In this document: positions 6,364 to 38,187 of the stretch, in pieces
How the letters are laid out: every line of letters begins with the position of its first letter
How positions within the stretch are numbered: the first letter of the stretch is position 1
Position numbers and translations under genes: made by a program
The notes under the pieces: generated by a model
What the model saw: the letters and a program-made list of their open reading frames with translations, nothing else
What the model was told of the DNA's origin: nothing
The model's database searches: none
Origin: an uncultured Nitrososphaerota archaeon
GTDB lineage: Archaea > Thermoproteota > Nitrososphaeria > Nitrososphaerales > Gagatemarchaeaceae
Length of the DNA: 64,000 nt
Assembly (NCBI GenBank): GCA_963838925.1
Contig: CAWISW010000003.1
Coordinates: forward strand, 352,001 to 416,000
Reading direction: 5' to 3'

Positions 6364-6656
6364 GACGCGTGTCGGTCGTAGTCCTCCTCTTGTTCTAGGC
6401 GGGATTCAGCTAAGCGGCCTACCTTGGCCTGGTGCAGGCGCGTCGTCGACCATGTTCGGCCTTGCTCTGCACGGGTCAGCCGTTTCATCCCGCTTCCGCC
6501 GACCTCGGGATTTCTCCGTCATCGCCCTAGACGGGGCGGGTGTCGTTTCTGTTCTGTTGCCAGCCGTCTCCAGCTACGCCTCTCGGCGTCGTGCATCCTG
6601 CAGTGAGGGAGGAACTTCCCCAGGAGACCCCCGTGGCCCACCCACCGACTCACGTC
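6364..6656 (-). ncRNA. rnpB: Archaeal RNase P RNA
   Basis: Minus strand shows GGAAGTTCCTCC (CR-I), ACAGAAACGAC, GGATGAAACGGC, GAGCAAG, GCTTAGCTGAAT, AACAAGAGGAGGACTAC (CR-V); termini can pair as P1. Confidence 0.92.
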
Positions 6657-7344: not shown

Positions 7345-7872
7345 TCAGAACCTGCTTCCCCGTTCTGGTACGCGGAGCTGCGGGAAGAAGCTCCGCTCGA
7401 TCTCCACCGCCTCCTGCTCGGACGACGCCCTGGAGTACTCCACGAGAGGGTCGTGGTTGAGAGTCAAGAAGGTCGGGCCCCACTTGTATATGTTGAGGAA
7501 ACGCACTGCTTCCTCCTCCTCGCCGAGTATGAACAAGGTAGCGGCGACAGCTTCCACCGAGCTCAGGATTCCTAGCCGCGAGTAGTTCGTCGGGTTGGCC
7601 GCCAAGAGGCCGGGGAGCCTCCTGTGCTTTCCGCCAATCTTCCTGAAAAAGACCTCCTGGGCGAGGTTCCACGAGCAGTCTATCGCAAGGATGGACTTGC
7701 ACATCTTGTCGATGGGGGTGAGCAGCTGGCCCGAGTAGGGGTTGAGCACGACCGTCGTGTTGGGGGCGTGGAACTTCCTGTTGACCTCCGTCGCCAGGCC
7801 CATGTGCACCATCTTCTTGGCGGTGCACTTCTCCGGGGCGTCCTGCCCGAAGTCGATAACGAAGACGTTCAA
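7345..7872 (-). CDS. tsr3: rRNA aminocarboxypropyltransferase Tsr3
   Basis: DAPEKCTAKK, IDCSW, RRLPGLLAANPTNY, LSSVEA, KWGPTFLTLN. Confidence 0.93.
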   Translation of the reverse strand: MNVFVIDFGQDAPEKCTAKKMVHMGLATEVNRKFHAPNTTVVLNPYSGQLLTPIDKMCKSILAIDCSWNLAQEVFFRKIGGKHRRLPGLLAANPTNYSRLGILSSVEAVAATLFILGEEEEAVRFLNIYKWGPTFLTLNHDPLVEYSRASSEQEAVEIERSFFPQLRVPERGSRF

Positions 7873-8309: not shown

Positions 8310-8363
8310 CATTCGGACAAAACTATTTACTTCGCCGAGGGCTTCCGTTTTCGTGCTTCGCAG

Positions 8364-9659
8364 ATGCCCCGCCGAAGTGTAATCGTGTTTGTGATTACTG
8401 CGTTGGTCGCCACCGGAGCATACCTATCGGTTTCAGAACTTGCGGGTCAGCCCCCCGTCACTTCCAATCAAGTGACTTCGACCGGCAACTCGGTTTCTGT
8501 GGGCAGCTCCGGCAGTTACCAGGTCCTTAAGACGAACCTGACGATATATTATGGTCCGGCCTGCATTCCACCTAACCTTGAGGGCTTCGGCTGCGAGACG
8601 ATAGACACGGCGCTCCATTCCCCTTCCCTCAGCGGGGTGGACCTCATCCAGTACCAGGGCAGCAAGTATTATGGCCTGAACTTCACGGGTTACGAGAACG
8701 GGCAGCCTGACACCCGCGACATCTGGTTCACCAATTCAACGATCCTCTGCGTCAGCCCTCCGACCAGTGAATATCCCCCATGTCCGACGAGCTCTGCACG
8801 GCCGCGCGCCATCGTAATCTTCAACTCATCGGCTTCTGCATTGAACTCCTCAAGCGGTCTTACGCTGAGCCTCCAACTCTCACTCGCCCCCGGGAATTCC
8901 TCCAAGCTGCAAGTTAGGGTGGATCTCTTCAACACGCAACAAGCGGAGAATACAGTAGGCGCCGCAAACAGCTGGCCTGTCTCCAACGACTCTGTGAGGG
9001 ACATTTGCGTAAATCACATCGTCGGATACGTCTTGTATCAGGGACACTATGACTTCGGCAACTTCACTGCGGGCTCGCCTCTGGCCCTTGACCCTACTAA
9101 CACCCAGACGCTGTGTCCCGCGCCCTCATCGTCGGTATATTACTCATTCCAAGCCAACAGCGACAACGCAACGATTCAGGGGGCTAGCGCCTTCCCCTCG
9201 GGCGGTGCAACCCGGACAATCTCAGTCTCAGACAGTCTCTCGGGTTATTGGACCGGGAACCGGACATCATCTTCATTCGACTCGTTCCTCCCTGGAATCT
9301 ACTCTGTGGCTGCAATGGACCAATGGGGGCAGGTCGTCGTGCTCCAGTTCGAGGTCAGCGGAATCAGCCTACAGAACTTCTCGCTCTGCCCCTCTAACTG
9401 CCTCTATCCCAGCCCGTCTCTGACCGGAGAGATCTATTTCGGAGGCCCTTCTCTTGCGAAGAGCATGGAACTCTTCGTCAACGGGACCGACGAAGGGTCT
9501 CTGGGACACGGCATCGGTAGCACCAACGTCATCTACTTGTACAAGGGGAGTTTCCAGTCTCCGCAAGTAATAGCAGGCGATGCGTACGTGATCAAGTTCG
9601 TGGCCACTCTCGCGGACAACTCGACCGCCACCGCCTCGACCACAGTGGTAGCGAAATGA
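8364..9659 (+). CDS. Multi-domain secreted/surface protein
   Basis: Signal anchor; module ending GYW...PGIYSVAAMDQWG shared with 13722, 22275, 34438. Confidence 0.8.
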   Translation: MPRRSVIVFVITALVATGAYLSVSELAGQPPVTSNQVTSTGNSVSVGSSGSYQVLKTNLTIYYGPACIPPNLEGFGCETIDTALHSPSLSGVDLIQYQGSKYYGLNFTGYENGQPDTRDIWFTNSTILCVSPPTSEYPPCPTSSARPRAIVIFNSSASALNSSSGLTLSLQLSLAPGNSSKLQVRVDLFNTQQAENTVGAANSWPVSNDSVRDICVNHIVGYVLYQGHYDFGNFTAGSPLALDPTNTQTLCPAPSSSVYYSFQANSDNATIQGASAFPSGGATRTISVSDSLSGYWTGNRTSSSFDSFLPGIYSVAAMDQWGQVVVLQFEVSGISLQNFSLCPSNCLYPSPSLTGEIYFGGPSLAKSMELFVNGTDEGSLGHGIGSTNVIYLYKGSFQSPQVIAGDAYVIKFVATLADNSTATASTTVVAK

Positions 9660-9735
9660 CCCGCAACGATAACCTTCGCTCACCTGGGCAGAGTCGAGAC
9701 GAAACTGTTTTTCTGCTGCCGTACCAGCGTCTGGA

Positions 9736-10200
9736 GTGACCTTGCGCCGAATCGAAGTCGCCGCGGTGATTGTCGTCCTGGCGTCGGCCTGGATAGCGGG
9801 CTACCTCGTCGCCCCATCCTCTTCCCCCGCGACGTCTGTCTCCTATCAGACGGTCACCGGGCTCTACACGTCGTCGGCACTTCAGGTCTTCACTTCGACC
9901 TTCCTCGCGCAGAGCAGCACTCAGAGCGGGGTGAAGACGGCGACCGTCTACAACACGATAACCTACACGACGTCCGCAACCGGACTCACCTCCACGATAA
10001 CTCTCTGCTCATCGGTCGAGTACGCCACCGTCACGACTACGGGGACGGTGACCTCCTATCTCTCAAATGAGACGGTCGTCACCAAGACGACCACGACTGG
10101 CGTGACGACCATACGCGCCGGCTCCACGGTCACCACGACGGGGTGCGATGTTGCCACGGTCACCAGAACTACCACCACTTACGTGACGACGACTCAGTGA
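9736..10200 (+). CDS. Thr-rich membrane-anchored surface protein
   Basis: N-terminal TM, extreme Thr bias. Confidence 0.7.
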   Translation: MTLRRIEVAAVIVVLASAWIAGYLVAPSSSPATSVSYQTVTGLYTSSALQVFTSTFLAQSSTQSGVKTATVYNTITYTTSATGLTSTITLCSSVEYATVTTTGTVTSYLSNETVVTKTTTTGVTTIRAGSTVTTTGCDVATVTRTTTTYVTTTQ

Positions 10201-10226
10201 TCCGACGCCTTCCAAAGCAGTCAGTA

Positions 10227-10826
10227 TCAACCTTCCTGGGCGTACTGGACGATGAAGGCCAGGTAGTCGGAGCTCTCTCTCAAGATGAGCCAGTCCCCAG
10301 CCCTATAGACATAGGAGTAGCTTGCCGAAAGATTCCCCTCAAAATCCCCCATCATGTTGGAGTGTCCTGAGAAGGACAAGGAAGCACCGAGACTTGCGGT
10401 TCCGTTTGGGAGGAGGCTCGCGTTCTCAGAGCGGATGGTGTAGTTGATCTCCGTCGCGGCGCCCGGGAACGTCCGCAGCGTTGTGCTGATGGCGCTGGTC
10501 CCCCTGTAAGTGCCTCCGAAACCCTGCGTGACCCCATACCAGTACATTATCCCGTTGGACGCGTAGTCCTCCGTTGCCGCGGTATAGTTTCTCTCGTCGA
10601 GGTGCGATAGGTGCATGTTGAATGCTTGGACGACCGCGCTCAGGTTCTTGAGGGACTGCGACTGGGCCGCGGTGTAGCTCCCTACCTCGGAGCTAAGGCC
10701 CGAATTCTCCTTCTGGAGCGATGCGACCAATCCGTATTCGTAGCCGCTGATGAACAGGACGACCACCAGCGCGACAATGAGGCAGATGGCGAGTTCGCTG
10801 CGGACCGTCTTCGGGGTCGGCTCCAA
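10227..10826 (-). CDS. Membrane-anchored protein with NTF2/SnoaL-like domain
   Basis: TM + short coil; HLSHLDERN...WYGVTQGFGGTY module shared with 15080 and 19646. Confidence 0.7.
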   Translation of the reverse strand: MEPTPKTVRSELAICLIVALVVVLFISGYEYGLVASLQKENSGLSSEVGSYTAAQSQSLKNLSAVVQAFNMHLSHLDERNYTAATEDYASNGIMYWYGVTQGFGGTYRGTSAISTTLRTFPGAATEINYTIRSENASLLPNGTASLGASLSFSGHSNMMGDFEGNLSASYSYVYRAGDWLILRESSDYLAFIVQYAQEG

Positions 10827-10905
10827 GCCACTCGAAAGAGGGTCAGGTCACGGATAAAGGATTCTCGGTTCGGTAAATCGCCTTGCTAGTCGCATCAAGA
10901 AGAGA

Positions 10906-11110
10906 TTTCCATCAGCACATCCTTTCTCCGCAAGGGGAGGGGAGAGCTGAGGAGAGCGGCGATAGAAGATCGCGTTGAAGGGGTGGGGGTGTACGCTAGA
11001 AGCCTTCGGGCGACCAGTTCAGCCCGTCCACTACCTATAGCTCAACGTGCGAGTGAAATGCCCCGGCGGAGGGGCAATGAACCCCTGTGCACGGCGAAAT
11101 CACTTTCATT
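10906..11110 (+). ncRNA. Candidate unrecognised structured RNA (three hairpins)
   Basis: Hairpin 10906-10955 capped by GCAA, long hairpin 10971-11049 capped by cTTCGg, third hairpin 11051-11106; no ORF in the track. Confidence 0.5.
11031..11110 (+). repeat. Cassette-delimiting element copy A (longest)
   Basis: ctacctatagctcaacgtgcgagtgaaatgccccggcggaggggcaatgaacccctgtgcacggcgaaatcactttcatt. Confidence 0.92.
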
Positions 11111-11151
11111 CGGATAAATCCCGTCCTAGAACAAAGCGGCATACCGGCTGA

Positions 11152-11736
11152 CTATTGGGCGGTCACTGTCACAGTTTCTAGGTCAGCTGGCCTGGAATGG
11201 CTCAGGGGACCTGAGTTCCAGTTTGCGACTGCCTGAACTGTGTAGTTCATCCCTCGAACTATATCGAGCTCTGCATTCGATATCATGAAGGAGTAGTTGG
11301 TCTCCTGCTCGCCACGAGAGTTGGGTGTCCACGTGGGGTCCCAATTGATGCCAGTGGTGTCGATGTGGATTGTGGTGACATTGGTGCCCACTGGCCATCC
11401 ACCATTCACCGGGTTGGGCAGAGCCCACTGCAGTTCGATGGTCGAGGGCGGTGAGAGATCGCTGTGGGTGCACTCTATCGTGCCGGCAAGCAAGCTCTCA
11501 TTCGTTCCAAGCGTGGATGAGGACGTGAGATTGGTGTCGATCAGCAAGATGTATGGGCCGCAATAGGTGTCCGGACCCTCGCAGTTCGTCGATGTCGTGA
11601 CCCCGAACTCGCTCGTTACGCTCGTGGTCTGCCCGCTGCGAGTCGTTGCAAGGTAGCCGACGGCAACCGACCCCAGCACCACGGCGAGCGCCAAGATGAG
11701 CGCGGCAACAGATCTTCCGATTGCGGCTCGAGGCAT
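11152..11736 (-). CDS. Membrane-anchored surface protein (cassette 1)
   Basis: Start taken as MPRAAIG (11736) after the promoter motif; the longer ORF runs through repeat B. Confidence 0.75.
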   Translation of the reverse strand: MPRAAIGRSVAALILALAVVLGSVAVGYLATTRSGQTTSVTSEFGVTTSTNCEGPDTYCGPYILLIDTNLTSSSTLGTNESLLAGTIECTHSDLSPPSTIELQWALPNPVNGGWPVGTNVTTIHIDTTGINWDPTWTPNSRGEQETNYSFMISNAELDIVRGMNYTVQAVANWNSGPLSHSRPADLETVTVTAQ

Positions 11737-11791
11737 TGCAGGCTGGGTTCTGTCGTATCGCGTTCGGGATATAGTTTTGTCCGAACCAAGC

Positions 11792-11829
11792 GCCCCGGCG
11801 GAGGCACAATGAACCCTCATGCATTGCGA
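11792..11829 (+). repeat. Cassette-delimiting element copy B
   Basis: gccccggcggaggcacaatgaaccctcatgcattgcga. Confidence 0.9.
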
Positions 11830-11950
11830 GAATTGCCATTCAGCTCCTGCAATTACGGTTCGACTTTCGGAAACGTACCTTGTAGCCCGTCTAGGACTCA
11901 GATCAAGAGGCTCGTAGCAGACCCTCTCTTCTCGACCCAACTCCCTCTCT

Positions 11951-13507
11951 TCAACCACCGTTCTTGATGGACGTTGCGGAAGTCGTCGTCGTGGTGACGG
12001 TGCTGCTCCCCTCGTTCGACGTGACAACGGTCACCACACCGGACGGGACTGACACCGTGACGTAGATGGTCGAATTGGGATGAACCTGAATCGAAGGGAT
12101 CGTCGCACTATACCCCGGCCCCTGGTTGTAACCGGCCATGAAGGTCACGTTGTAGTAGCCACTCGCGATGAAGGTCATGTTCCCCGCGAGCTGCAGGTAG
12201 CCGGTTCCGTTGACGTCCCCCAGCCTGATGCAGTAGTGGTTTGTCAGGCCCCATTCGCCGTTTGTCGCGTTTCCGAACTGGGTCACGAAGAGTGTCCCAT
12301 TCGTTATGACAGTGCCCTGGTCCGTGGCCACCTTCATGTATACGGTCCCTTTCGGAGCCGGATTCAGCACCGTGTTGAGCGGTGCACCGCAGGCAGGGAA
12401 GTTCACTGTCGTAGATGTGCTCGTTGTTGATGACTGCAGAGTTGTGGAGGCGGAGGACCCGGCCGTGGTGCAACTTGTCCCATAAGTGGTATCAACCGCT
12501 CCAGAAGGAACCTGCAGCGTCACACAGGTGGATCCCGCCCTTTGGCTCGCCGTCACGTTGTAGGTTTGACCACCGTATTCGACGGAGAAAGAATTGGTGG
12601 CGTCCCCGAAGGCATACCATTCTGTGCTCGTGGTCGTGAAGCTCACGAATGCCTCGCCGCTGAAACACGACGGATACACGGAACACGGAACGCACGTGTA
12701 CGGGAAGTCGTAGGATGTCGTCGCGACCGCTCCCGCGACGGGGGCCGAATCGGAGTCCGAAAGCACGCGCAAGTAGACCTCCCCAAAGCACGCGTAAGTG
12801 GACTTCCCCGCCCACGCTACGAGGTTCCCCGCGCAGTCATAGTTCGAGAATTGATAGCTGGCCAGGGTGACCACGCCGGACGGCACGGCGAGCGTAACAC
12901 ACGTCGTCGAATCAGGGTAAGTGCCCCCTGAGAACAAGTATGTGTTGCCGGCATAGCCTACCGTAAAATTGTAGCCCCCGGCGATGTTGTCTGTTGAATT
13001 ATTGGGAATGTCGAACCATCCCGACGACCCTTCGCTGACTCTGTCAAAGTAAAGCGTCTCTGTCGTATGGAACTCTGCGGCGTTGCAGCCCGTCTCAAAG
13101 GCGGCGCTGACGGCAGGCGCGCCTTGCTGAACCGGCATCCCAGTGGTGTCTGACACGACCTGCAACTCCATCGTGGCACCGCCCGGGGGAGTGCAGTTGG
13201 TCATGGTGGCGTTCATCTCGGTGGACGTCGTCAGAGAGCTAGAGAGACTCACGTTTGCCGAGTAGGTGCTTTGAGTGTCGGCAATCCTCGAAACCGTGGA
13301 AGAGGTTGAGGTCTGTGAGGTCGCCACGGTTTCGGTCCCTTGGGACGTCGAAGCTGTCGTGCTCGTCGTGCTGTTAGGTAACGAGCTGGTCCCCTGTGAA
13401 AAGAAAGCCGCGGTTATTGCAACTAGCCCAACTGTAATGGTAACAAGAGCAATCGAGAGGTATCGTGCCGCAAGGGCGGTCCTCTTTTGACCGACTTCAA
13501 ACCTCAT
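11951..13507 (-). CDS. Surface protein with three internally repeated Cys-containing domains (cassette 2)
   Basis: TM, S/T linker, repeats ending TCVTLAVPSG / TCVTLQVPSG / TIYVTVSVPSG. Confidence 0.8.
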   Translation of the reverse strand: MRFEVGQKRTALAARYLSIALVTITVGLVAITAAFFSQGTSSLPNSTTSTTASTSQGTETVATSQTSTSSTVSRIADTQSTYSANVSLSSSLTTSTEMNATMTNCTPPGGATMELQVVSDTTGMPVQQGAPAVSAAFETGCNAAEFHTTETLYFDRVSEGSSGWFDIPNNSTDNIAGGYNFTVGYAGNTYLFSGGTYPDSTTCVTLAVPSGVVTLASYQFSNYDCAGNLVAWAGKSTYACFGEVYLRVLSDSDSAPVAGAVATTSYDFPYTCVPCSVYPSCFSGEAFVSFTTTSTEWYAFGDATNSFSVEYGGQTYNVTASQRAGSTCVTLQVPSGAVDTTYGTSCTTAGSSASTTLQSSTTSTSTTVNFPACGAPLNTVLNPAPKGTVYMKVATDQGTVITNGTLFVTQFGNATNGEWGLTNHYCIRLGDVNGTGYLQLAGNMTFIASGYYNVTFMAGYNQGPGYSATIPSIQVHPNSTIYVTVSVPSGVVTVVTSNEGSSTVTTTTTSATSIKNGG

Positions 13508-13596
13508 TACTACTCGTTGCGAAAGAGCGGTTGGAGATACTTACAGGTTGCGCACTAATGTTCTAGGCCTATCCAAGCCGGAGTCGAGGTCCCACA

Positions 13597-13641
13597 CCCG
13601 GCGGAGGCGCAATGAACCCTTATGCACGGCGATTGCCCGCA
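13597..13641 (+). repeat. Cassette-delimiting element copy C
   Basis: cccggcggaggcgcaatgaacccttatgcacggcgattgcccgca. Confidence 0.92.
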
Positions 13642-13721
13642 TTTTCTCAAAGCTACCGGGAGCTGGAACGTTCGGAGACAAAGGTATTAGTGAGCAGGAG
13701 GGCCTTCACGCTCCGATCTCC

Positions 13722-15005
13722 ATGACACTGCCGACGAACAGCGACAGGAGACTGGTCTACGTAGCCGCGGCGATAATAGTCGGCGTAGTGCTCGTATCGG
13801 CAGCAATCATACTCCCTCCAGCCATCCATCAGACGAAGACAGCGCCACCATCGACCTCGACCACGGTATCTCAACCATCGGTCTCGACTAACGCCTCAAG
13901 CACGACAGCAGACGCGACCGGGCTCCGACTTTCGCTGGCCATAAACAATGACGTGATAGCTGAAGGGGGCAGCATCTCAATCAACATCACAGATTTCAAC
14001 ATACTGCCGGTCAGTAACTCACCCCAGCCTATCAGCATCTTGAGGCTCGGCACGAGCGCGTGCCCTACATCGTTGCCCCTTGGTGTTGGGATATTCCAGG
14101 GCGACTTCGACGCCGGAAACGTCTCCAGCGCCCAGCCGATGGATCTCTACCAACCAGGAGTCTACAGCTGTCCCGGCATTCCATCGGGCGGCTACTCCTA
14201 CACCTTTGAGCCGGAGAGCGACAACGTGAACCTCTCCGTCGGGACGAGCACTGCGACGCACACCGTTACAGACAACGGCACGACTAGCGTGCAGTACATC
14301 GTCACGAATCCCACATACGTCAAGGACGCGTCCGCAACTCTGCAGTATTCGGGCTATTGGACGGGGGAAGCGACCTTCACCTTCTCGAACGCCACCTTTC
14401 ATTCCTTTGGTGCGGGGGAGTACACCATCGAAGCGGTCGACTTGTGGGGCCACGAGGTGTTCGCCCACTTCCAAGTAGTCCCGAACCCTGCATCGTCGGC
14501 CACAACCACGACGATAACGGTTGCTGCACCCGGCCAGTGTCCTGCAGGGAACACTTGCGCTTCTTTCAGCTACAACTCTGACGGCCAGGTCAAGGTGGAT
14601 TCCGTCAACGCGACCCAGCAGGCGTGCTTCAACTGCGGAGTCGTGAATGGGAACGGTCACTCGTACGTGTACATTCAGGTGACGTTCGAGAACACAGGCA
14701 GCTTGCCTATCTACATCCCAGACGGCTCGGCAGTGATTTCAACGTCGCCCTCGTCGAACTCCTCTGTGCTCCAGCAGGTGGTCTCGGCCCAGTGCGCAGG
14801 AACATATTCGATCCTGGAGCTCGACCCCGGGAAGAGCGCCACATTCTCAGGTCCTTCCTGCGAGGACGGATTTGCATACCAGATGGTCAATCCTGGGACC
14901 GTGACCCTCACTCTCAGTTTCAATTGGACGACCAACTCGCAAGCTTCGACAAATCCGACCGACTTCCAAGAGAAAACCACAATCTTGGCGCAGCTCACTT
15001 TCTAG
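13722..15005 (+). CDS. Two-domain surface protein (cassette 3)
   Basis: Start MTLPTN 13722; TM; module shared with 34438 and 8364. Confidence 0.8.
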   Translation: MTLPTNSDRRLVYVAAAIIVGVVLVSAAIILPPAIHQTKTAPPSTSTTVSQPSVSTNASSTTADATGLRLSLAINNDVIAEGGSISINITDFNILPVSNSPQPISILRLGTSACPTSLPLGVGIFQGDFDAGNVSSAQPMDLYQPGVYSCPGIPSGGYSYTFEPESDNVNLSVGTSTATHTVTDNGTTSVQYIVTNPTYVKDASATLQYSGYWTGEATFTFSNATFHSFGAGEYTIEAVDLWGHEVFAHFQVVPNPASSATTTTITVAAPGQCPAGNTCASFSYNSDGQVKVDSVNATQQACFNCGVVNGNGHSYVYIQVTFENTGSLPIYIPDGSAVISTSPSSNSSVLQQVVSAQCAGTYSILELDPGKSATFSGPSCEDGFAYQMVNPGTVTLTLSFNWTTNSQASTNPTDFQEKTTILAQLTF

Positions 15006-15043
15006 TTAGGCCGTGGCATTAGTGTCGGGCGAGATTGAACTCT

Positions 15044-15072
15044 CGGCGCAGGTGCAATGAACCCTTATGCAC
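15044..15072 (+). repeat. Cassette-delimiting element copy D
   Basis: cggcgcaggtgcaatgaacccttatgcac. Confidence 0.88.
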
Positions 15073-15079
15073 AGTTATG

Positions 15080-16792
15080 CTAGCAGAGCGTCAGGTTTGA
15101 TACCAGCGACACCCCGTCGTAGATGCTTAGCGCCCCGCAAGCGCCTGGGCCGACCATGCCCTCCGCGTCGACCCACTCGGGGCTGGTCGAGGAGCTCACT
15201 ATGTTGAGGAATGAACCGGGCGAATCAAAAGTGGCCGCGATGGTCCCGTTGTACCCTATCAGTCGGACGGTCGTCCCGTCTCCCACGATCACCAACGAAG
15301 CACCGTTGACGAATGCCAGCGGGTTCCCGTAGCCGGTGTCGTTCCAGAGGATGTTACCACTTGAGTCGAAGAGGAGCTTACCGACGTTGCCGCCCGAAGC
15401 TATGTATCCGCCATCGGAAGACATGAAGAGCGGCTGGACAGCGGTGTATGCCTGCCTCTTCCAGAGGACGTCGCCATCTTTGCCGCTGAAGTAGTAGACG
15501 CTCCCGTTCTCGCCGTTCACGAACGTCCCCACCGCCACCCTGGAGCCGTCGCTCGACATCTGCACGAAGTTCACGCCTTCGCCTTGATTGCCAATATGAC
15601 TCCACAGAAGGCGACCTTGCGAGTCGAGGTAGACCACTCCCCAGCTGAAATCGGTCCGGTTGGGGAGCAGCATGTACTGCACCGCGCTCACGACGTAGTC
15701 TCCTTGGCCCGACGTAGCGATGTGCATGCCCGAGCCTCCGTAGGGGAAAGTGTAGTTCCAAAGTACTGAACCAGCGTCATTCAAGCAGAGTATGCCCCAG
15801 TAGTAGTCCGCGAATATCCTTGAACCGTCTGGCGACATCCCCAGCGAAATCACCGAACCCTTCGCGGTGACGTTCCAGAGCTGTGCGCCCTCCCCGTCGA
15901 AGAGAAAGAGGACACCGGTATCGCTGACATGCCCGAGCCGCTCCAAACCGTATCCGCCCGCTGCGACATAGGACGCATTCTGAGAGACAGCCACCGACTC
16001 TATGTTGCTATTGTTGGTGACACGCCTCCAGAACACCCCTTGGGATTGGCTCCGCAACGAGACCAGGTACACGGAGCCGTTGCCGCCGCCTCCTATGCTG
16101 ATTGTCCCCACTGCGGCGTAGCCTCCGTCCGGACTTATGCTCTCAGCATCAGGCCTCTGGGTAGCCGCTTGTCCTGGAGGCGGAGGCCCTCCACCCTGCT
16201 GGGAATACTGAATGTTGAAGTTTGTGAAGTCCCAGTGCTCGGCGGAGATCAGCCAGACGCCTTCCGCAGGGAAGTAGGCATAGGAATCGTTCGCCAAGAC
16301 AGCACCAGCGAAGTTCCCCCAGATGTTGCTGTGGCCGGAGAACGAGAAGTTCCAGTCCACCAACACCGCGCTTGTCGAGGGCAGGATTGTCTGCGTCACG
16401 TTCGTGATCTGGAACGACGACATTCCACCTATCGCGGTCTCAAGTGTGAGTTTGATGTCGGTCCGAGACTCGTAAGAGCCGCCAAGGCCTTGAGTAGTTC
16501 CTACCCACGTCATCGTCCCATTGGGTGCGAAGAGATCGGCGACTGCCGAGGCGTTCCTCGACTCGAGCAGTGAGACATGCATCGCGTGCGTTGCGTTGAC
16601 CATCTCGACGGCCTGTGAGGGAGGGGACGGGTAACTCGAGGACGCGTTGGTTGTGGTCGATACGCTCGATGCCGAGGAGGTCGCCGTCTCAGTACTGCTC
16701 TGCAGACTCACCAGAGGCAACGACACCAGGGTGAGAACGGCGATCATCACAAGCGCCTGCGCCGCGACGAACAGACCTTCTTTTCTTCTCAT
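15080..16792 (-). CDS. Surface protein: NTF2-like domain + WD40/PQQ-like beta-propeller (cassette 4)
   Basis: TM leader; repeated S.DG.YVAVG / G..LW blades. Confidence 0.8.
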   Translation of the reverse strand: MRRKEGLFVAAQALVMIAVLTLVSLPLVSLQSSTETATSSASSVSTTTNASSSYPSPPSQAVEMVNATHAMHVSLLESRNASAVADLFAPNGTMTWVGTTQGLGGSYESRTDIKLTLETAIGGMSSFQITNVTQTILPSTSAVLVDWNFSFSGHSNIWGNFAGAVLANDSYAYFPAEGVWLISAEHWDFTNFNIQYSQQGGGPPPPGQAATQRPDAESISPDGGYAAVGTISIGGGGNGSVYLVSLRSQSQGVFWRRVTNNSNIESVAVSQNASYVAAGGYGLERLGHVSDTGVLFLFDGEGAQLWNVTAKGSVISLGMSPDGSRIFADYYWGILCLNDAGSVLWNYTFPYGGSGMHIATSGQGDYVVSAVQYMLLPNRTDFSWGVVYLDSQGRLLWSHIGNQGEGVNFVQMSSDGSRVAVGTFVNGENGSVYYFSGKDGDVLWKRQAYTAVQPLFMSSDGGYIASGGNVGKLLFDSSGNILWNDTGYGNPLAFVNGASLVIVGDGTTVRLIGYNGTIAATFDSPGSFLNIVSSSTSPEWVDAEGMVGPGACGALSIYDGVSLVSNLTLC

Positions 16793-16923
16793 GCTTGGTC
16801 ACCGTGTGGAACAATCGGTAGCAGCCGAGGGCTGCTTCGAGAAGAAGGGCCCGCCTCAGTAAATAGTTTTGTCCGAGCTGGGCGCGAGGCCGTAAATAGG
16901 TCCGATGGCCATTCCGGCACGAC

Positions 16924-17163
16924 ATGAATAAAGGAACGATTCTGCTTCTTGCTGCCGGAGCTTGCGCGATAGGCTGCGCCTTCGTCTGTTTCTTCTTTTT
17001 CGTTCCAATAATAAGGATGGACATAACGCCTTGCGAACCTAATGGTGCTGGGGTTGGATATGCTTCTTTGTCATATCACTTGTTCTACATGGGAATGAAC
17101 TATCTTGGAAACCAATTAGTCTGGATGACGGGAAGTAATGCCAGTTGCATGGGGCTTCCCTAA
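16924..17163 (+). CDS. Small membrane protein (cassette 4)
   Basis: 79 aa, hydrophobic N-terminus, lower GC. Confidence 0.55.
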   Translation: MNKGTILLLAAGACAIGCAFVCFFFFVPIIRMDITPCEPNGAGVGYASLSYHLFYMGMNYLGNQLVWMTGSNASCMGLP

Positions 17164-17226
17164 GATTATCATCACCCGCGACTGGACACCCGAGGCGAAT
17201 CACCCGACCATTGGACAGAACCGCTG

Positions 17227-17260
17227 GGCGGAGGCCCGATGAACCCTGTGTATGGCGAAG
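17227..17260 (+). repeat. Cassette-delimiting element copy E (degenerate)
   Basis: ggcggaggcccgatgaaccctgtgtatggcgaag; 1-nt deletion relative to the consensus. Confidence 0.85.
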
Positions 17261-17394
17261 CCCTTCTACTTCATTTTAGACAAACGCAGCGGAGCCCGCG
17301 CCCCTCGGAACGAGACTTCGAAGCCCAACCCTCCGCTAATCACGTTCGGACAATCCCTTAACTGGGACCTCGCTCTGTCGTTAGAACGTTCGAA

Positions 17395-18273
17395 ATGCGT
17401 CCGATTGCTGGCGCTGCCGTTGCCGCAGTCATTGTGGTCGCGGGGCTTGGAGGATACCTCATAGCTACAGGAGCGATGTCGCCCGGCTCTTCGCAGACCA
17501 GGTCACAGACGACAGTCACCGTTACTGCTTCGAGCACGGAAACCGCAACCGCGGCCTTCAACGGATCATCGTACTACAGCGACAATGTAACAGGCATCAT
17601 GATAACGGAGAACCCGGGGGCATTCCACTTCGACAACGGGTCGGTGACGTTCATGGGAGTGGAGTTCCAGACGATCTGCACGGATTACGGCGCTGGATGT
17701 CCGGTCCCGGCTCCCCCTCCAGGAACAACGTTCGTGGTGCCCTCCGGCGCAAGCATCACCCTGAACGTCACCTTCCCAGACCACAGCAGCGAGATTGTCG
17801 AGGGGGGACCTTTATTTGCAGGGCCTGTTCGCTCGGATACATTCTCTCATCACATCGATCCTCAGGCGGGGATTATGATAGTGTACAACGATTCGGACCC
17901 CATCTACAAGTCCTACCTGCTCGTCTCCATTCCGGAGCCGACACCGAGCCAAGCGACGAACTCCAGCACATCGGGCGACGCAGGGACTTCCTCGAATACC
18001 TCCGTCGCGACCTCCACGGCGACCGAGACCCTCACCACGCAGGCCTCCCAGGCTACGACGAGTTACGCTGCTCCGACTTCTGACTGCACCTTACTGGGCG
18101 GTACCGTCACGGTGACGACCACTGTCACTGCCTTCGCGCCGCCCGCGACGTCTACCGTCACGGTGACGACAACGACAGTCTCGACCAGCTACACCCAAAC
18201 CGTCACCGTGACCAGTTGCACATACACCGAGCCGACGGTCACTTCTACCGTCACGACCACAGCGAGCCCGTAG
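17395..18273 (+). CDS. Surface protein with Thr-rich tail (cassette 5)
   Basis: TM; VTF.D..SE...SH..PQAG module shared with 36644. Confidence 0.8.
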   Translation: MRPIAGAAVAAVIVVAGLGGYLIATGAMSPGSSQTRSQTTVTVTASSTETATAAFNGSSYYSDNVTGIMITENPGAFHFDNGSVTFMGVEFQTICTDYGAGCPVPAPPPGTTFVVPSGASITLNVTFPDHSSEIVEGGPLFAGPVRSDTFSHHIDPQAGIMIVYNDSDPIYKSYLLVSIPEPTPSQATNSSTSGDAGTSSNTSVATSTATETLTTQASQATTSYAAPTSDCTLLGGTVTVTTTVTAFAPPATSTVTVTTTTVSTSYTQTVTVTSCTYTEPTVTSTVTTTASP

Positions 18274-18276
18274 GGA

Positions 18277-18318
18277 CGGCGGAGGCGCAATGAACCCTTA
18301 TGCATGGCGAAGTCACTC
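18277..18318 (+). repeat. Cassette-delimiting element copy F
   Basis: cggcggaggcgcaatgaacccttatgcatggcgaagtcactc; starts 3 nt after the upstream stop. Confidence 0.92.
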
Positions 18319-18396
18319 ATTTCCATTGCCGAAGCTCAGTCTAACTACCAAGTTCAAAAGAGACCTCCTGACTTCTACCTCACGCAGGGTTGCGGA

Positions 18397-19530
18397 GTGC
18401 CAAAGCGTGTTCCACATTTCCGTTCCAGCCGCTCGGCGGCGAGCATCTTTCTTGCCCTCTTGGTCGTCTGCATCATGCTCGCTCCCTTCGCCAGAGCCCA
18501 AGATGCAGTCACGTCCATCACTGTCGGATACTATCCTGATGCGGCAGCGTACGACGCTTCAAAGGGAGAGGTGTTCGTGGCCAATTCTGGCTCCGAGAGC
18601 CTGTCCGTGATATCCGACAGCAGCAATCAGGTTATCGCGACGGTAAGCTTGGGGAGCGCTCCGAATGATTTGGCCTATGATCCCGCAAGAGGAGAAGTGT
18701 TCGTGACCGATGCGGCCGCTAGCGACGTCCTCGTAATATCTGATACCACGAACTCAATCGTCGACACCATAGCGTTGCCCCCAAACAGTCAGCCCATGTA
18801 CATCGAGTACGACCCCTCGAAGGGCGAGATGTTCGTAGCAGATCGCGGCTCGGCCACAATCTCAGTGATATCTGATAGCGCCGACACGATTGTCGCGACC
18901 ATAATCATGCAACCCCAAACAAGCTCGTTTGTATACATGGCCTACGACTCTGCCAAGGTCGAGATGTTCCTCACCAATCCTGTGACTCACGACGTTTCCA
19001 TTGTCTCAGACACAACCAACACCGTCATCGCAAACGTGACCTTGCCTGCCATAGCAGATCCCACGAGCATAGTATTCGACCCCGCGAGGGGCGAGATGTT
19101 TGTGGCGAATTTCGATTCAAACATCTTCGTCATATCGGACAGCAGCAACACGCTAGTCGCGACGATGAATGCAGTTAGCGGATCAAAGGCCGAGGTCTAC
19201 GACTCGGCTCGGGGCGAGATTTTCGTAGCGAATGCTGACACTGCCTCGATCTCTATCATATCCGACAATAACAACACGGTCTTGACGACAGCGTTTTTGC
19301 CGATGGCAAGTACGCCCTCTGACCTTGCCTATGACTCCGCCAAGGGAGAGGTGTTCGCAACAGACTCAGGGGGTACCACAGTCTACGTCGTATCAGACGC
19401 ACAATCATCGACCATCACTACAAGTTCCACGGCCCCAGAATTCTCCCAAGGCGACACAGTCATCGTGATGGCGGCAATGATAATGTGCATTGCATTGCTG
19501 ACAAGGAACTATCGTTCAACGTGCGAGTGA
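18397..19530 (+). CDS. YVTN/YncE beta-propeller surface protein with PEF-CTERM-like tail (cassette 6)
   Basis: Seven (Y/F)D..(K/R)GE(V/M)FV blades; C-terminal APEF + TM; GTG 18397 taken as start. Confidence 0.85.
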   Translation: MPKRVPHFRSSRSAASIFLALLVVCIMLAPFARAQDAVTSITVGYYPDAAAYDASKGEVFVANSGSESLSVISDSSNQVIATVSLGSAPNDLAYDPARGEVFVTDAAASDVLVISDTTNSIVDTIALPPNSQPMYIEYDPSKGEMFVADRGSATISVISDSADTIVATIIMQPQTSSFVYMAYDSAKVEMFLTNPVTHDVSIVSDTTNTVIANVTLPAIADPTSIVFDPARGEMFVANFDSNIFVISDSSNTLVATMNAVSGSKAEVYDSARGEIFVANADTASISIISDNNNTVLTTAFLPMASTPSDLAYDSAKGEVFATDSGGTTVYVVSDAQSSTITTSSTAPEFSQGDTVIVMAAMIMCIALLTRNYRSTCE

Positions 19531-19585
19531 AATGCCACGGCGGAGGTGCAATGAACCCTTGTGCATGGCGATTGCCCGCACTTTC
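19516..19585 (+). repeat. Cassette-delimiting element copy G
   Basis: tcaacgtgcgagtgaaatgccacggcggaggtgcaatgaacccttgtgcatggcgattgcccgcac. Confidence 0.92.
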
Positions 19586-19645
19586 AACAAGCTAGCGGAG
19601 CCTCCACACGGAATAATAGGCGCCGCCGCTATTCCCGCATCCAAG

Positions 19646-20326
19646 CTGAAGGCAAAGACGAGCGCCTATGTGGCCGCTCAAATCGCCGCTTTTGCTGCCG
19701 TGTTGGTCCTGATCTCATTGCCACTCGAGTCAGGGAGCCAGCAACCGATTTCGGCGCCCTCCACCAGTCAAGAGCTGACCTTCACATCGTTTAGTTGCAC
19801 TTCCACCTCGAAGGCCGTCACTAACGTGTTGCCCGTCAGCTCTGAATCCCAATTGCTTTCAATGGTCAACAGCAGCTTTACCGAGCATCTCCTGCATCTC
19901 GGCTCTAGAAACACCTTCGCGGCAACGAACGACTTCGAGGATGGGGCGCAAATGGCCTGGTCGGGGTCGGGGTTCGCCAACGCCGGAGGCTTCGCAGGAA
20001 ACTACACTGGGTTGCGGGCAATCAACGAGGTCTACGAGGGGCTCTTGGAAATCCCAACTTCACTCTCCATTGTCAACGAGAGCTGGACTTTGGCCACAAC
20101 CGGGCCAGAGTCGGCCGTGGTCCACTCTTCACTGGGATTCGAGGGATACGGCAACGCAACGCATGGGGAGGGCTTCGACGCCCAAGTCGTTGGAACAGAC
20201 TATTACGTGGCCGCAAACGGCTGGCAGATTTCGCAGGAATTCTGGAATTTCACGAGCTTCGACTGGCAATACTCGTTCTCAACAATGTTTGGCCCTGGCC
20301 CATCTGACGATTCGTGCTACCACTAG
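19646..20326 (+). CDS. NTF2-like surface protein (cassette 7)
   Basis: Leader LKAKTSAYVAAQ...LISLPL aligns with N-termini of 15080 and 22275 genes, implying a start near CTG 19646; track start lies inside repeat G. Confidence 0.7.
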   Translation: MKAKTSAYVAAQIAAFAAVLVLISLPLESGSQQPISAPSTSQELTFTSFSCTSTSKAVTNVLPVSSESQLLSMVNSSFTEHLLHLGSRNTFAATNDFEDGAQMAWSGSGFANAGGFAGNYTGLRAINEVYEGLLEIPTSLSIVNESWTLATTGPESAVVHSSLGFEGYGNATHGEGFDAQVVGTDYYVAANGWQISQEFWNFTSFDWQYSFSTMFGPGPSDDSCYH

Positions 20327-20341
20327 AGCATCCAGCGCCAG

Positions 20342-20396
20342 CTACCTATAGCTCAACGTACGAGTGAAATGCCCCGGGGGAGGCGCAACGATCCCT
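20342..20396 (+). repeat. Cassette-delimiting element copy H (terminal)
   Basis: ctacctatagctcaacgtacgagtgaaatgccccgggggaggcgcaacgatccct; left part nearly identical to copy A. Confidence 0.9.
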
Positions 20397-20568
20397 CTTC
20401 AAGAGAAACGGAATCCGCCAAGACGGGCTTATCTCGCGATTTGCCATTTCAGGACTTCGACGATGAGCATGGTCATGTCTCCAACCCTAGTCTGAACTCA
20501 GTCGAATCTCTCCGTGTAACGAAATGAACTCTTTTATACCGAGTCCGACCAAATAGTGCCGAACACAA

Positions 20569-20802
20569 ATGCCCATGGCTTTCGTGCTTATCAACGCAGA
20601 TTTAGGGGCCGAGGAGGAGCTGCTAAAGTCGCTCAGAGGGTTGGAGTTCGTACGCGATGTGTACGTCGTCTACGGAGTTTACGATATTATAGCTCGCGTC
20701 GAGGCCGACACCATGGAGAAGGTCAAGGAGACCATCACGTGGAAGATTCGCAGGCTCGACCGCGTCAGGAGCACCCTGACGATGATAGTCGTCGAGGGCT
20801 AG
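20569..20802 (+). CDS. Lrp/AsnC ligand-binding-domain protein
   Basis: MAFVLIN...VYGVYDIIARVE...IRRLDRVRSTLTMIV; TATA tttata at ~20533. Confidence 0.9.
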   Translation: MPMAFVLINADLGAEEELLKSLRGLEFVRDVYVVYGVYDIIARVEADTMEKVKETITWKIRRLDRVRSTLTMIVVEG

Positions 20803-21682: not shown

Positions 21683-21712
21683 GGAGGCGCCCTTGGGACA
21701 ACAAATAACCAA

Positions 21713-21754
21713 CGCGTCAGGAGCACGCTGACGATGATCGTCGTCGAAGGCTAG
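21713..21754 (+). repeat. Copy of the last 42 bp of the Lrp gene
   Basis: 39/42 identical to 20761-20802; all three differences synonymous. Confidence 0.95.
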
Positions 21755-22184: not shown

Positions 22185-22236
22185 CGATTGATTAGTCAGC
22201 TGAGATAATTAAACACAACAGCGCTCGAATCATCCG

Positions 22237-22260
22237 GACGATGATAGTCGTCGAAGGCTA
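22237..22260 (+). repeat. Second, shorter copy of the Lrp gene 3' end
   Basis: gacgatgatagtcgtcgaaggcta, 23/24 identical to the Lrp gene end. Confidence 0.88.
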
Positions 22261-35568: not shown

Positions 35569-35711
35569 CAGACCAGTTTCTTGAGGTCGGATTTCGCTAA
35601 ATAGTTTTGTCCGACCGCGCGAATGCTTCTTTCAAAGGGACTTTGGTCTAGACTTGTCGAACCCCGCCGTGTCTCGAAAAGCTTAAGATTGAATTTGCGC
35701 CGAACAGCGTC

Positions 35712-35767
35712 GGCGGTGGAGCTCGCCATAACCGCTCGCAACCTGTTGTGGGCCAATAGCTCCTACC
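35712..35767 (+). promoter_or_regulatory. Fluoride (crcB) riboswitch
   Basis: GGCGGTGGAGCTCGCCATAACCGCTC...GGCCAATAGCTCCTAC fits the motif, pseudoknot GGAGCT/AGCTCC; directly upstream of crcB. Confidence 0.9.
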
Positions 35768-35800
35768 AAACAAAACAAAAGCGAGCGGGAATGATACACG

Positions 35801-38109: not shown

Positions 38110-38187
38110 ACCTTCGCTCTGCGGGTTATGAGCCCGCCGGGATAACAACCAACGCCTTTTGGGCGCACCTGGCTTCCCCACCTCGCT
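38091..38187 (-). tRNA. Initiator tRNA-Met(CAT) with a 22-nt D-loop intron (38146-38167)
   Basis: A1-U72, three G-C anticodon-stem pairs, BHB central helix GCCA/TGGT; CCA not encoded. Confidence 0.92.

Follow-up and report, generated by a model that had tools for sequence, protein, structure and literature searches.

Arrays of small accessory-gene modules bounded by copies of the 23S rRNA 3′ end in a genus of Nitrososphaerota archaea

What kind of locus is formed when one short repeat, always on the same strand, recurs after every gene or two of an archaeal chromosome, and where does such a repeat come from? The locus lies in the window analyzed here, a stretch of 64,000 nucleotides on contig C3 (offset 352000) of G000, a thaumarchaeal (Nitrososphaerota) MAG of 87% completeness. 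A first-pass annotation had proposed an integron-like site of cassette capture; we compared the window with the rest of its genome and with related genomes.

Repeats and modules of the window

Motif and alignment searches of the window recovered the eight repeats at the eight places first reported, all eight on the plus strand and all eight between long ORFs, that is, at gene boundaries. A 12-mer alone is weakly above chance (9 matches vs 3.9 expected, with at least 9 in 2 of 100 shuffles), and a 12-mer match at 20521 was rejected as a ninth copy since it fails to align with the repeat family. The 20-mer GGCGGAGGNNCAATGAACCC, allowing up to two mismatches, gave 21 matches in the genome vs 0 for the reversed control. 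Common to every copy is a core of ~25 nt, CCCCGGCGGAGGCGCAATGAACCCT. Repeat coordinates are given relative to the reference for the alignment, the real 23S end of G000 at C3:203899.

10896..11098, plus strand: repeat A, the final 161 nt of a 23S rRNA gene followed by trailer (40 nt); core 11065-11085
11779..11817, plus strand: repeat B, reference -10 to +28
13597..13638, plus strand: repeat C, reference +5 to +45
15044..15065, plus strand: repeat D, core only, +7 to +28
17227..17304, plus strand: repeat E, +8 to +86, with a long right flank
18277..18311, plus strand: repeat F, +7 to +40
19509..19577, plus strand: repeat G, -22 to +45
20342..20396, plus strand: repeat H, -26 to +28, the degenerate final copy and right edge of the island

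Between these copies lie seven modules, preceded by a repeat-free left part of the island.

8310..10895, no strand assigned: repeat-free left part, three genes
11152..11736, minus strand: module 1 gene, membrane-anchored Ser/Thr-rich protein of ~194 aa from an internal Met; no Pfam family
11951..13507, minus strand: module 2 gene, 518 aa, anchored, Ser/Thr-rich; no Pfam family
13722..15005, plus strand: module 3 gene, anchored protein of 427 aa; no Pfam family
15080..16792, minus strand: module 4 gene, 570 aa, anchored, beta-propeller; PQQ_2 at 41.2 bits (cut-off 27.6)
17395..18273, plus strand: module 5 gene, 292 aa, anchored, Ser/Thr-rich
18304..19530, plus strand: module 6 gene, secreted repeat beta-propeller protein whose exact start is uncertain; NHL at 35.6 bits (cut-off 20)
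19565..20326, plus strand: module 7 gene, anchored protein

The modules had been called surface-protein cassettes. The layout behind that name was found in all seven, each protein having a hydrophobic anchor at its N-terminus and, after it, a Ser/Thr-rich stretch, but a Pfam gathering cut-off is reached by just two of the seven, both with beta-propeller families, and for that reason surface location is something we infer. A longer, 291-aa version of the module 1 ORF reads through repeat B and was taken as an artefact. Internal repeats D3, D5 and D6 lie within the module 6 gene. The three genes of the left part are absent at this locus in the relatives G007, G010, G015 and G018, and no Pfam family was found for their ORFs (8364-9659, 9736-10200 and 10227-10826). 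Two window modules have relatives in the 23S-linked array of G009 described below: the module 5 gene has 68% nucleotide identity to a module there, and the stretch made of a repeat and the module 7 gene has 71% nucleotide identity to the first module behind the 23S.

The position of the repeats next to genes could suggest a cis-regulatory module (promoter, 5′ UTR or terminator) that was copied before or behind paralogous genes. The core has a GGAGG followed by an ATG, the long right flank has a TTTTAGA box, and copies C, E, F and G precede same-strand genes, F and G giving an in-frame ATG. However, what follows copies A, B and D is in each case the 3′ end of a gene on the opposite strand, genes separated by copies are mutually unrelated, right-flank length bears no relation to the orientation of the next ORF across arrays (Fisher p = 0.57), and indels between copies shift every reading frame, so that a regulatory role of this kind is very unlikely. 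The same frame shifts led us to reject a small peptide starting at the ATG after the GGAGG.

The 23S rRNA trailer and the arrays of the genus

In origin, the repeats are duplicates of DNA from the 23S rRNA gene, covering its 3′ end together with the trailer. Those of the window correspond to the last 0-161 nt of G000's own 23S rRNA gene and the first 20-86 nt of the 3′ trailer, and their alignment to the 23S end bears out the earlier description of copies truncated on the left at differing points. Repeat A is 97.5% identical to the real 23S end of G000 across 203 nt, and its positions 10952-11043 match positions 2885-2973 of the Rfam family LSU_rRNA_archaea with 51.4 bits (gathering score 50). 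The right flank of repeat C resembles the real 23S trailer of G018. Among 173 copies, conservation is 69-98% from -4 to +20, with a sharp drop to the right and gradual decay to the left, and the points where homology ends cluster at +5 to +8 and at +28.

The 23S trailer appears to supply the 3′ strand of a bulge-helix-bulge (BHB) processing stem, and the G000 trailer/leader duplex has a computed energy of -100.6 kcal/mol. In the master pairing as we drew it, a 4-bp helix lies between a 3-nt bulge and a second loop, and a 3-4-3 drawing is possible with a 1-nt irregularity. The 23S leader is single-copy in G000, so the extra repeat copies have no partner strand in cis. The bulged hairpins of the first-pass annotation did not hold up: none of the eight window copies folds as single-stranded DNA better than its own shuffles (z -0.53 to +1.34). 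Its comparison of one repeat arm with the XerC arm of dif proved spurious, that arm being the complement of the 23S leader strand.

G000 carries ~30 copies, ~27 of them in two arrays, one linked to the 23S and the other in the window. All 21 of the 20-mer matches fall on C3: immediately behind the 23S, at 171-204 kb, 14 are on the minus strand, and the window has the other 7, on the plus strand. Genome-wide 20-mer and alignment searches thus find the repeat clustered, and the scatter typical of REP/MITE elements, which the first-pass annotation had named as grounds for giving up its reading, does not apply. A selfish small repeat of the MITE or REP type inserting between genes would indeed be short, multi-copy, intergenic and present in truncated copies, as this one is; yet besides their clustering in two arrays, the copies have no hairpin or terminal inverted repeats, none of 181 copies in the arrays of G007, G009, G015, G018 and G000 is on the opposite strand, related loci differ by a module together with a repeat and were never seen to differ by a repeat alone, and no Y1 transposase was found in G000 (87% completeness). 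Insertion of a selfish repeat is already contradicted by these data, and we give it next to no weight.

The core is present in 21 of 22 congeners and in the one sister-genus genome searched; it was found neither in the one genome of a third genus nor in any of 16 other families of the order, and in three closed genomes of other families the 23S end is not repeated within 20 kb downstream. No exact core match was detected in viral contigs. In four well-assembled relatives, the arrays extend 40-85 kb downstream of the 23S. Array copies number 40 in G007, 50 in G009, 53 in G015 and 11 in G018, next to 19 and 8 in the two arrays of G000, and the median repeat spacing is 857, 807, 843 and 1745 nt in G007, G009, G015 and G018, respectively. 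In these four relatives the sole full-length match lies at the array start. The first ORF of a module is co-oriented with the array in 101 of 154 cases and on the opposite strand in the other 53. No conserved gene was seen at the far ends of the compared arrays, and a 5S gene at the far end, as in SAR11, is ruled out by the position of the G000 5S at C3:421688. Copies do not decay consistently as distance from the 23S increases: G018 alone shows a clear trend, G007 a partial one, and G009, G015 and G000 none. Capture restricted to a proximal, attI-like site was rejected on these grounds.

The rRNA origin of the repeat, the start of an array at the rRNA operon and the occurrence throughout the genus had all escaped the first-pass annotation.

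Module turnover and breakpoints at the core

The content of the modules is hypervariable, comprising toxin-antitoxin, defence-like and surface-protein genes, and 289 of 374 module ORFs have no relative in other arrays. Comparison between relatives, as the first-pass annotation had advised, showed that module content differs and that the breakpoints are at the repeat. G007 and G015 have three modules in common at 90-95% identity with differing neighbours, and in each the homology begins 1-4 nt before one core and stops 19-32 nt into the next repeat. A block consisting of tRNA, integrase, DnaJ and repeat is 91-96% identical in four species, vs 66-75% for the chromosomal flank. Its integrase gene is intact in G020, at C86:6396-7727. 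From this platform, homology to G012 and G018 stops at the core or at most 15 nt past it, and behind the core G012 has wholly different modules; between the G020 and G009 platforms it runs on into a common first module at 77%. The G018 platform equals that of G020 minus one module and one repeat, and at its junction the core has the flank of repeat 1 on its left and that of repeat 2 on its right. A near-identical platform carrying different modules in four species indicates that the turnover is recent.

At the window locus, the conserved flanks are 1.2 kb apart in G010, 1.8 kb in G015, 4.6 kb in G007 and 6.0 kb in G018, with no repeat between them, 12.3 kb apart in G000, with eight repeats, and 28.4 kb apart in G009, with seven repeats, and no module is common to G000 and G009. 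Gene order at this locus is thus not kept among the relatives compared, and the objection that relatives might show the same order here falls away.

In the few orthologous copies compared, a count on alignments shows the core diverging about as fast as the surrounding module, so individual copies need not be under selection. The copies of G007 and of G015 carry their own clade's variant of the 23S end and those of G009 are mixed, although donor typing by these variants is weak because they differ by single transitions. No excised circles or empty sites within a population were seen in Logan contigs from four soil DNA runs of one study at 3-5x depth. Repeat-to-repeat "joints" in the soil contigs were rejected as evidence of excision, their sides being 20-49 nt long, as a shared repeat would give. 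Many soil contigs have a common core followed by divergence at 13597/18277 and 11098/13632, which shows flank diversity only.

The probable processing-stem origin of the repeat raises the question of whether the copies act in RNA rather than in DNA. Each could be a functional 3′ half of a BHB motif. Its transcript would base-pair with the one 23S leader, either in cis, when rRNA transcription reads through, or in trans, after which the tRNA-splicing endonuclease and a ligase would cut the copy and join the leader to the module RNA. In the stem as drawn, the conserved block from -4 to +20 covers the inner helix and the 4-bp GCGC helix as well as the AAU bulge, and reaches 6-7 bp into the outer helix; the most variable core positions, +11 (A/G) and +13 (T/C), are bulge positions, and the arrays are co-oriented with the rRNA operon, as are most first ORFs (101/154). 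Such an element nevertheless leaves unexplained why interspecies DNA homology breaks at the core; in the outer helix from +14 to +19, changes that keep pairing (37) are not commoner than others (35), 53 of the 154 modules begin with an opposite-strand ORF, and orthologous copies diverge like their surroundings. We therefore regard a purely RNA-level role as unlikely. A dual role, in which the copies are both DNA boundaries and working rRNA-processing half-sites, with the endonuclease and ligase joining the operon leader to a chosen module transcript, appears quite unlikely. If the half-site reading were true, it would amount to archaeal alternative or trans-splicing that uses the strongest promoter of the cell and is coupled to a cassette store, and the site of cassette capture would be an rRNA processing signal.

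The copies could also be passive scars with no present role, att duplications left by successive integrations of larger elements at the 23S 3′ end that have since decayed to one or two genes. Duplication of the 3′ portion of an RNA gene as repeats is the classical footprint of integration, and in this genus repeats lie behind tRNA-adjacent integrases at 7 of 19 loci. Tandem re-use of one integration site is known for archaeal elements (PMC6563490), which fits such a history, yet rRNA genes go unmentioned as integration targets in the two reviews searched ("rRNA" has 0 occurrences). The unit is also tightly small, with a median of ~0.8 kb in three arrays of 40-53 copies, which is unexpected from the decay of large elements, no integrase remnants were seen in the arrays (the PF00589 match of G000 lies outside both), and the near-identical platform with different modules points to recent turnover. 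An origin as inert scars is thus improbable.

Probable recombination at the core, known systems and candidate enzymes

From the turnover and its breakpoints we infer recombination at the core as the cause, along with the type of enzyme responsible: throughout the genus, the repeats probably bound small accessory-gene modules and act as their recombination sites. A site-specific recombinase acting in trans is a serious candidate, at somewhat less than an even chance, and recombination through homology or short homology, with the conserved rRNA sequence as its anchor, is possible, if more tentative. In the proposed mechanism, the primary array, which starts at the true 23S 3′ end, would grow downstream, and secondary arrays lie elsewhere, at the window locus (in the lineage of G000 and G009 only) and behind integrases in tRNA-integrated elements. 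Modules of one or two genes would be gained, lost and exchanged by crossing-over within or beside the ~25-bp core, and the outcome would be a hypervariable store of surface, toxin-antitoxin and defence-like genes.

Several known systems resemble these arrays in part. Tandem att arrays, or "additive" genomic islands, arise where elements integrate time after time at a tRNA gene's 3′ end, and in them, as here, direct repeats of variable length reproduce the 3′ part of a conserved RNA gene and the array starts at the target RNA gene and grows away from it. The arrays described here differ in that the target is the 23S rRNA trailer, the units are single genes (one or two ORFs) without an integrase of their own, none being found in the G000 arrays, and up to 53 units occur in one array. 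HVR2 of SAR11 is likewise a hypervariable island of cell-surface genes directly behind the 23S, and its authors took the rRNA genes to be where homologous recombination happens and detected no attC sites; HVR2, however, is a single block swapped whole with no internal copies of rRNA sequence, whereas here the rRNA tail is repeated between single modules and, in G000, the far end lacks the 5S gene. As in archaeal pre-rRNA BHB processing stems, the master copy appears to be the 3′ strand of a stem and pairs with the leader, as drawn from the computed duplex, but of one strand there are ~30 extra copies, and of its partner just one copy.

Sedentary chromosomal integrons and CALINs (attC clusters without an integrase) have been reported also in Archaea (PMC9668308); in the main text of that paper, supplementary genome lists aside, the terms "rRNA", "Thaumarchaeota" and "Nitrososphaer" are absent. 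Like these, the arrays have a conserved platform followed by tens of same-strand repeats around ~0.8-kb modules, hypervariable content rich in toxin-antitoxin genes and genes of unknown function, and breakpoints at the repeat, and some, like integrons, lie directly behind a tyrosine recombinase gene. Unlike in integrons, the site is set by sequence, a 25-nt rRNA-derived core with no hairpin fold, the rRNA operon provides the main platform at its 3′ end, one third of the modules begin with an opposite-strand ORF, and no consistent proximal-to-distal age gradient is seen. The earlier description of an integron-like cassette-capture locus is thus upheld for same-strand repeats around accessory modules of one or two genes that differ between relatives, and it falls short on membership of the integrons, there being neither attC-type hairpins nor IntI.

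We found no description of such rRNA-trailer-bounded arrays in the literature, supplementary tables aside. Until now, integron-style gene capture has meant IntI and folded attC sites. In the archaea described here, an entire genus abundant in acid soils, arrays bounded by probable rRNA-processing sequence store single-gene modules by the tens, with the rRNA operon as the main platform. If recombination is confirmed, modular gene capture would have been solved a second time and independently; the arrays would also be a route for the turnover of toxin-antitoxin, defence-like and surface genes in Nitrososphaerota, and a case where a conserved signal for RNA processing serves anew as a DNA landmark. 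The core of 20-25 nt is a practical marker for extracting the flexible gene pool of these uncultured archaea from metagenomes.

No recombinase is tied to the arrays among the genomes examined. As first reported, the window has no integrase: it contains 0 matches to PF00589, and the sole match in the genome is at C3:13943-14476, ~338 kb off. This one tyrosine recombinase of G000 is atypical, lies 157 kb from the nearer, 23S-linked array, and has its best match to XerA_Arch, at 74.9 bits vs a cut-off of 220; with that score and ~30 copies of the repeat per genome, a Xer/dif site was rejected. On the IntI models it scores 43.1 bits (TIGR02249, cut-off 265) and 17.3 bits (NF011946, cut-off 435). 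Serine recombinase and Cas1, like the Y1 transposase, were not found in G000 at its 87% completeness. PF00589 matches occur in 17 of 22 congeners, never beside the 23S-linked array, and G006, G008, G010 and G014 (76-88% completeness) have repeats and no PF00589 match. The integrases that adjoin repeats are ordinary tRNA-adjacent ones, and of the 19 loci in that family only 7 have repeats downstream; the G020-type integrase family was not found in G000. An IS6/IS240-type transposase in the main array of G000 was rejected as the array enzyme, being an ordinary IS with four paralogs in the genome and no copy found in other arrays. One module is conserved at 88-89% in three arrays, and from its motifs we take its ORF to be aldo/keto-reductase-like, not a recombinase.

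Repeat copies in the window and their rRNA origin

The genome under study (G000) is archaeal and comprises three contigs (C1 to C3) totaling 1.84 Mb, at 87% completeness; the window corresponds to C3:352001-416000 and carries an archaeal RNase P RNA at 6367-6653. The eight repeats (A to H) described in the first-pass annotation were all recovered (8/8), every copy on the plus strand, and their placement at gene boundaries was likewise upheld, with 8/8 copies lying between long ORFs and one or two ORFs of at least 100 aa, on either strand, in each interval between neighboring copies. A short 12-mer exceeded chance just modestly, matching the window nine times against 3.9 expected, a count reached in 2 of 100 shuffles; one match, at 20521, lies outside the repeat family and was ruled out as a member. 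The 20-mer GGCGGAGGNNCAATGAACCC, with up to two mismatches allowed, gave 21 matches in the 1.84-Mb genome and none with the reversed control. The hairpins that had been proposed for the repeats failed, since all eight copies, treated as single-stranded DNA, fold no better than their shuffled versions (z −0.53 to +1.34).

The repeat is derived from rRNA. When the longest copies were aligned, their left extensions ran into rRNA sequence, and window 10952-11043 matches positions 2885-2973 of 2987 in the Rfam model LSU_rRNA_archaea (51.4 bits versus a gathering score of 50). The 16S-23S operon of G000 is found on the minus strand of C3, with the 23S model end at C3:203899, and repeat A is 97.5% identical to this genome's own 23S end over 203 nt; counted from the 23S 3′ end, the match extends from −161 to +40. 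The invariant repeat sequence begins 8 nt past the 23S model end and therefore represents the immediate 3′ trailer. This trailer pairs with sequence directly upstream of the 23S gene (duplex −100.6 kcal/mol) and is thus the 3′ strand of the 23S processing stem. As drawn, CCCCGGCGG and CCGCCGGGG form an inner helix; next come a leader-side loop, a 4-bp GCGC/GCGC helix, and a trailer-side 3-nt AAU bulge, and GAACCC and GGGUUC form an outer helix, a predicted geometry that is BHB-like. The leader strand is single-copy in the G000 genome. The 23S gene itself (C3:203899-207575) has ~670 nt beyond the Rfam model span, and the 23S genes of five species measure 3.68, 3.68, 3.98, 4.02, and 5.06 kb, their insertions falling in different places; the extra lengths probably represent introns or insertions in the rRNA.

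A sensitive BLAST search using the 23S end and trailer as query detected ~30 copies in G000: ~19 minus-strand copies at C3:171-204 kb, from the real 23S end onward (the main, 23S-linked array), eight on the plus strand in the window, and a few lone copies, at C1:131729, C3:146402, and C3:322249. On the left, homology in these BLAST alignments ends between −161 and +8, with a cluster at +5 to +8; on the right, the ends cluster at +28 and form additional groups at +37 to +47 and +74 to +102. A logo of 173 copies exhibits 69-98% conservation over −4 to +20 (CCCCGGCGGAGGCGCAATGAACCCT), the core common to all copies. Outside the core, conservation falls sharply rightward and decays gradually leftward, where the 23S tail is cut at variable points.

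Arrays behind the 23S gene across the genus

In four congeners (G007, G009, G015, and G018), the sole full-length match to the 23S end is the start of the main repeat cluster. Their arrays, scanned with a profile built on the G000 copies, are 40-85 kb long, and all array copies found with the profile are on the rRNA strand, with none on the opposite strand.

Repeat copies per array found with the profile, and median copy spacing
G007: 40 copies, 857 nt
G009: 50 copies, 807 nt
G015: 53 copies, 843 nt
G018: 11 copies, 1745 nt
G000: 19 copies in the 23S-linked array, 8 in the window array

Of 154 modules (the gene units between repeats) of up to 3 kb with an ORF of at least 70 aa, 101 begin with a co-oriented ORF and 53 with one in the opposite orientation. 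With up to two mismatches allowed, the core was found in 21 of 22 congeners, at 1 to 69 copies per genome, and in the one sister-genus genome; it was found neither in the one third-genus genome nor in any of 16 genomes from other families of the order, a zero that differing trailer sequence could explain. In three closed genomes from other families, no further copy of the genome's own 23S end and trailer occurs within 20 kb downstream. Records with exact core matches are titled Nitrososphaerota or Thaumarchaeota MAGs, including Candidatus Gagatemarchaeum stordalenia. The exact core is also present in two contigs (loci L077 and L106) binned as Acidimicrobiales and Acidobacteria, which are most simply mis-binned archaeal contigs. 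The genus-wide cassette-array system, with the rRNA processing-stem trailer as its boundary site, is real.

The integron-like character assigned to the window array holds for its layout, which works alike, but two defining features of integrons, IntI and attC hairpins, are absent here. The arrays also resemble tandem att arrays at tRNA genes, except that the units here are integrase-free single genes and the 23S trailer serves as target. HVR2 of SAR11 likewise lies behind a 23S gene but has no internal rRNA-derived repeats. The genome paper of the archaeal family mentions none of integron, repeat, 23S, integrase, or cassette; rRNA is unmentioned in an archaeal recombinase review and a Thaumarchaeota mobile-element survey, as are rRNA and Nitrososphaerota in the main text of the archaeal-integron paper PMC9668308. 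A search of main-text literature for such arrays found no description, and rRNA-trailer cassette arrays are apparently undescribed.

Module turnover at the core

Turnover of modules at the core is evident from sequence comparison between species. Three modules common to G007 and G015 are 90-95% identical and have different neighbors, and their homology extends from 1-4 nt before one core to 19-32 nt inside the next repeat. The 23S-linked G009 array contains relatives of window modules: its first module behind the 23S gene is 71% identical to module 7 with repeat G, and its module 6 is 68% identical to module 5. Five relatives have the three conserved flanks of the window locus, namely the RNase P RNA, a gene spanning 7376-7872, and an element spanning 20568-20800.

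Gap between the conserved flanks of the window locus
G010: 1.2 kb, no repeats
G015: 1.8 kb, no repeats
G007: 4.6 kb, no repeats
G018: 6.0 kb, no repeats
G000: 12.3 kb, eight repeats
G009: 28.4 kb, seven repeats, same orientation

G000 and G009 have no module in common at this locus, which, together with the differences in gap and repeats, indicates that the window array is a lineage-specific island with turnover.

The clearest evidence that whole modules may be gained and lost via crossing-over at the core comes from comparison of a platform shared by four congeners, located in G020 at C86:5751-7727 (locus L171); the other loci are L172, L174, and L176.

Order of the platform
intron-bearing tRNA
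tyrosine integrase
DnaJ-domain membrane protein
repeat

The block is 91-96% identical in G020, G012, G018, and G009 and its left chromosomal flank 66-75%, a difference that points to recent horizontal spread. G000 has the platform tRNA without the block. Platform homology to G012 and G018 extends to the first repeat's core and at most 15 nt past it, and between G020 and G009 it runs on into a common first module. Behind the core, G020 has platform modules A and B, G018 a B-like module only, G009 A′ (77% identical to A) plus one other module, and G012 wholly different modules. In the first G018 repeat, the core joins the left flank of G020 repeat 1 to the right flank of G020 repeat 2. A distal block after the last repeat is 90-92% identical in G020, G018, and G009, and the left flank of that repeat differs in each.

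G020 and G012 encode the platform integrase (444 aa; PF00589 50 bits; zinc ribbon under its cut-off) in intact form; the G018 and G009 versions are broken. The integrase family comprises 19 loci in 11 of 22 congeners, and wherever a tRNA was detectable it was directly upstream. Seven of the 19 loci, representing about four independent lineages, have same-strand repeats in the 7 kb downstream, and 4 of the 12 repeat-negative loci had less than 3.7 kb of sequence available; the tRNA-Leu subgroup had downstream repeats at 0/8. We read these integrases as ordinary tRNA-targeting enzymes on elements able to carry repeat arrays, elements that are possibly the vehicle moving modules between species.

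The recombination mechanism behind this turnover is one that we infer. A site-specific enzyme acting at the core would account for its sharp bounds, the strict polarity of the copies, and the fact that joined copies have little in common beyond 20-35 mismatched nt. Homologous recombination between rRNA-derived copies would account for the variable lengths of rRNA flank to which each copy is homologous, and would fit the 23S-tail variants that are clade-specific in G007 and G015, the divergence of orthologous copies and their modules at about equal rates, and the fact that no conserved enzyme was found. The single PF00589 match in G000 (C3:13943-14476) scores best with XerA_Arch, at 74.9 bits versus a cut-off of 220, and searches of this 87% complete genome for serine recombinases, Y1 transposases, and Cas1 found none. 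PF00589 matches are present in 17 of 22 congeners, none adjoining a 23S-linked array, and absent from four repeat-bearing genomes of 76-88% completeness. Copies display no consistent proximal-to-distal decay along the arrays, and insertion is therefore not limited to the 23S-proximal site.

Module content and neighboring features

Across six arrays, 289 of 374 ORFs of at least 60 aa have no relative in other arrays. By their N-terminal motifs, the shared module families resemble AbrB/PIN toxin-antitoxin pairs, HicB-like and ribbon-helix-helix proteins, J-domain proteins, and anchored Ser/Thr-rich proteins. All seven window modules encode a protein whose hydrophobic N-terminal anchor is followed by a Ser/Thr-rich stalk, and two of the seven reach a Pfam gathering cut-off, both for beta-propeller families.

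Pfam matches in the G000 main array
Mrr_cat
NERD with HEAT repeats
AAA_16 in a 1028-aa protein, under the family cut-off
radical SAM protein
DEAD/ResIII helicase, just past the last copy
IS240-type DDE transposase

Two big adjoining ORFs (792 and 721 aa) at C3:189414-193957 in the main array resemble type I restriction-modification subunits in their N-terminal sequence. Transposases of the IS240/IS6 DDE type that carry a SWIM zinc finger number four in G000, paralogs with 32-66% mutual identity.

IS240/IS6-type paralogs
window 43340-44479, minus strand
C3:179323-180489, main array
C2:509174-510310
C2:411372-412223

Window 20565-20801, the right edge of the island, is 74-89% conserved in 5/5 relatives examined; no Pfam family matches its 90-aa ORF and no Rfam model matches the stretch, which could be a small gene or RNA. 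To the immediate right of the window array, a second, unrelated family of 60-nt direct repeats occupies gene boundaries; one part of this family shows 95% conservation in both G009 and G018.

Second direct-repeat family, window positions
20742-20801
21694-21753
22201-22260

Further along the window are a fluoride riboswitch at 35703-35772 (37.4 bits versus a gathering score of 34) and a tRNA-Pro(TGG) at 38090-38187, called at 98 nt versus a 66-nt Rfam tRNA match, the excess length possibly being an intron.
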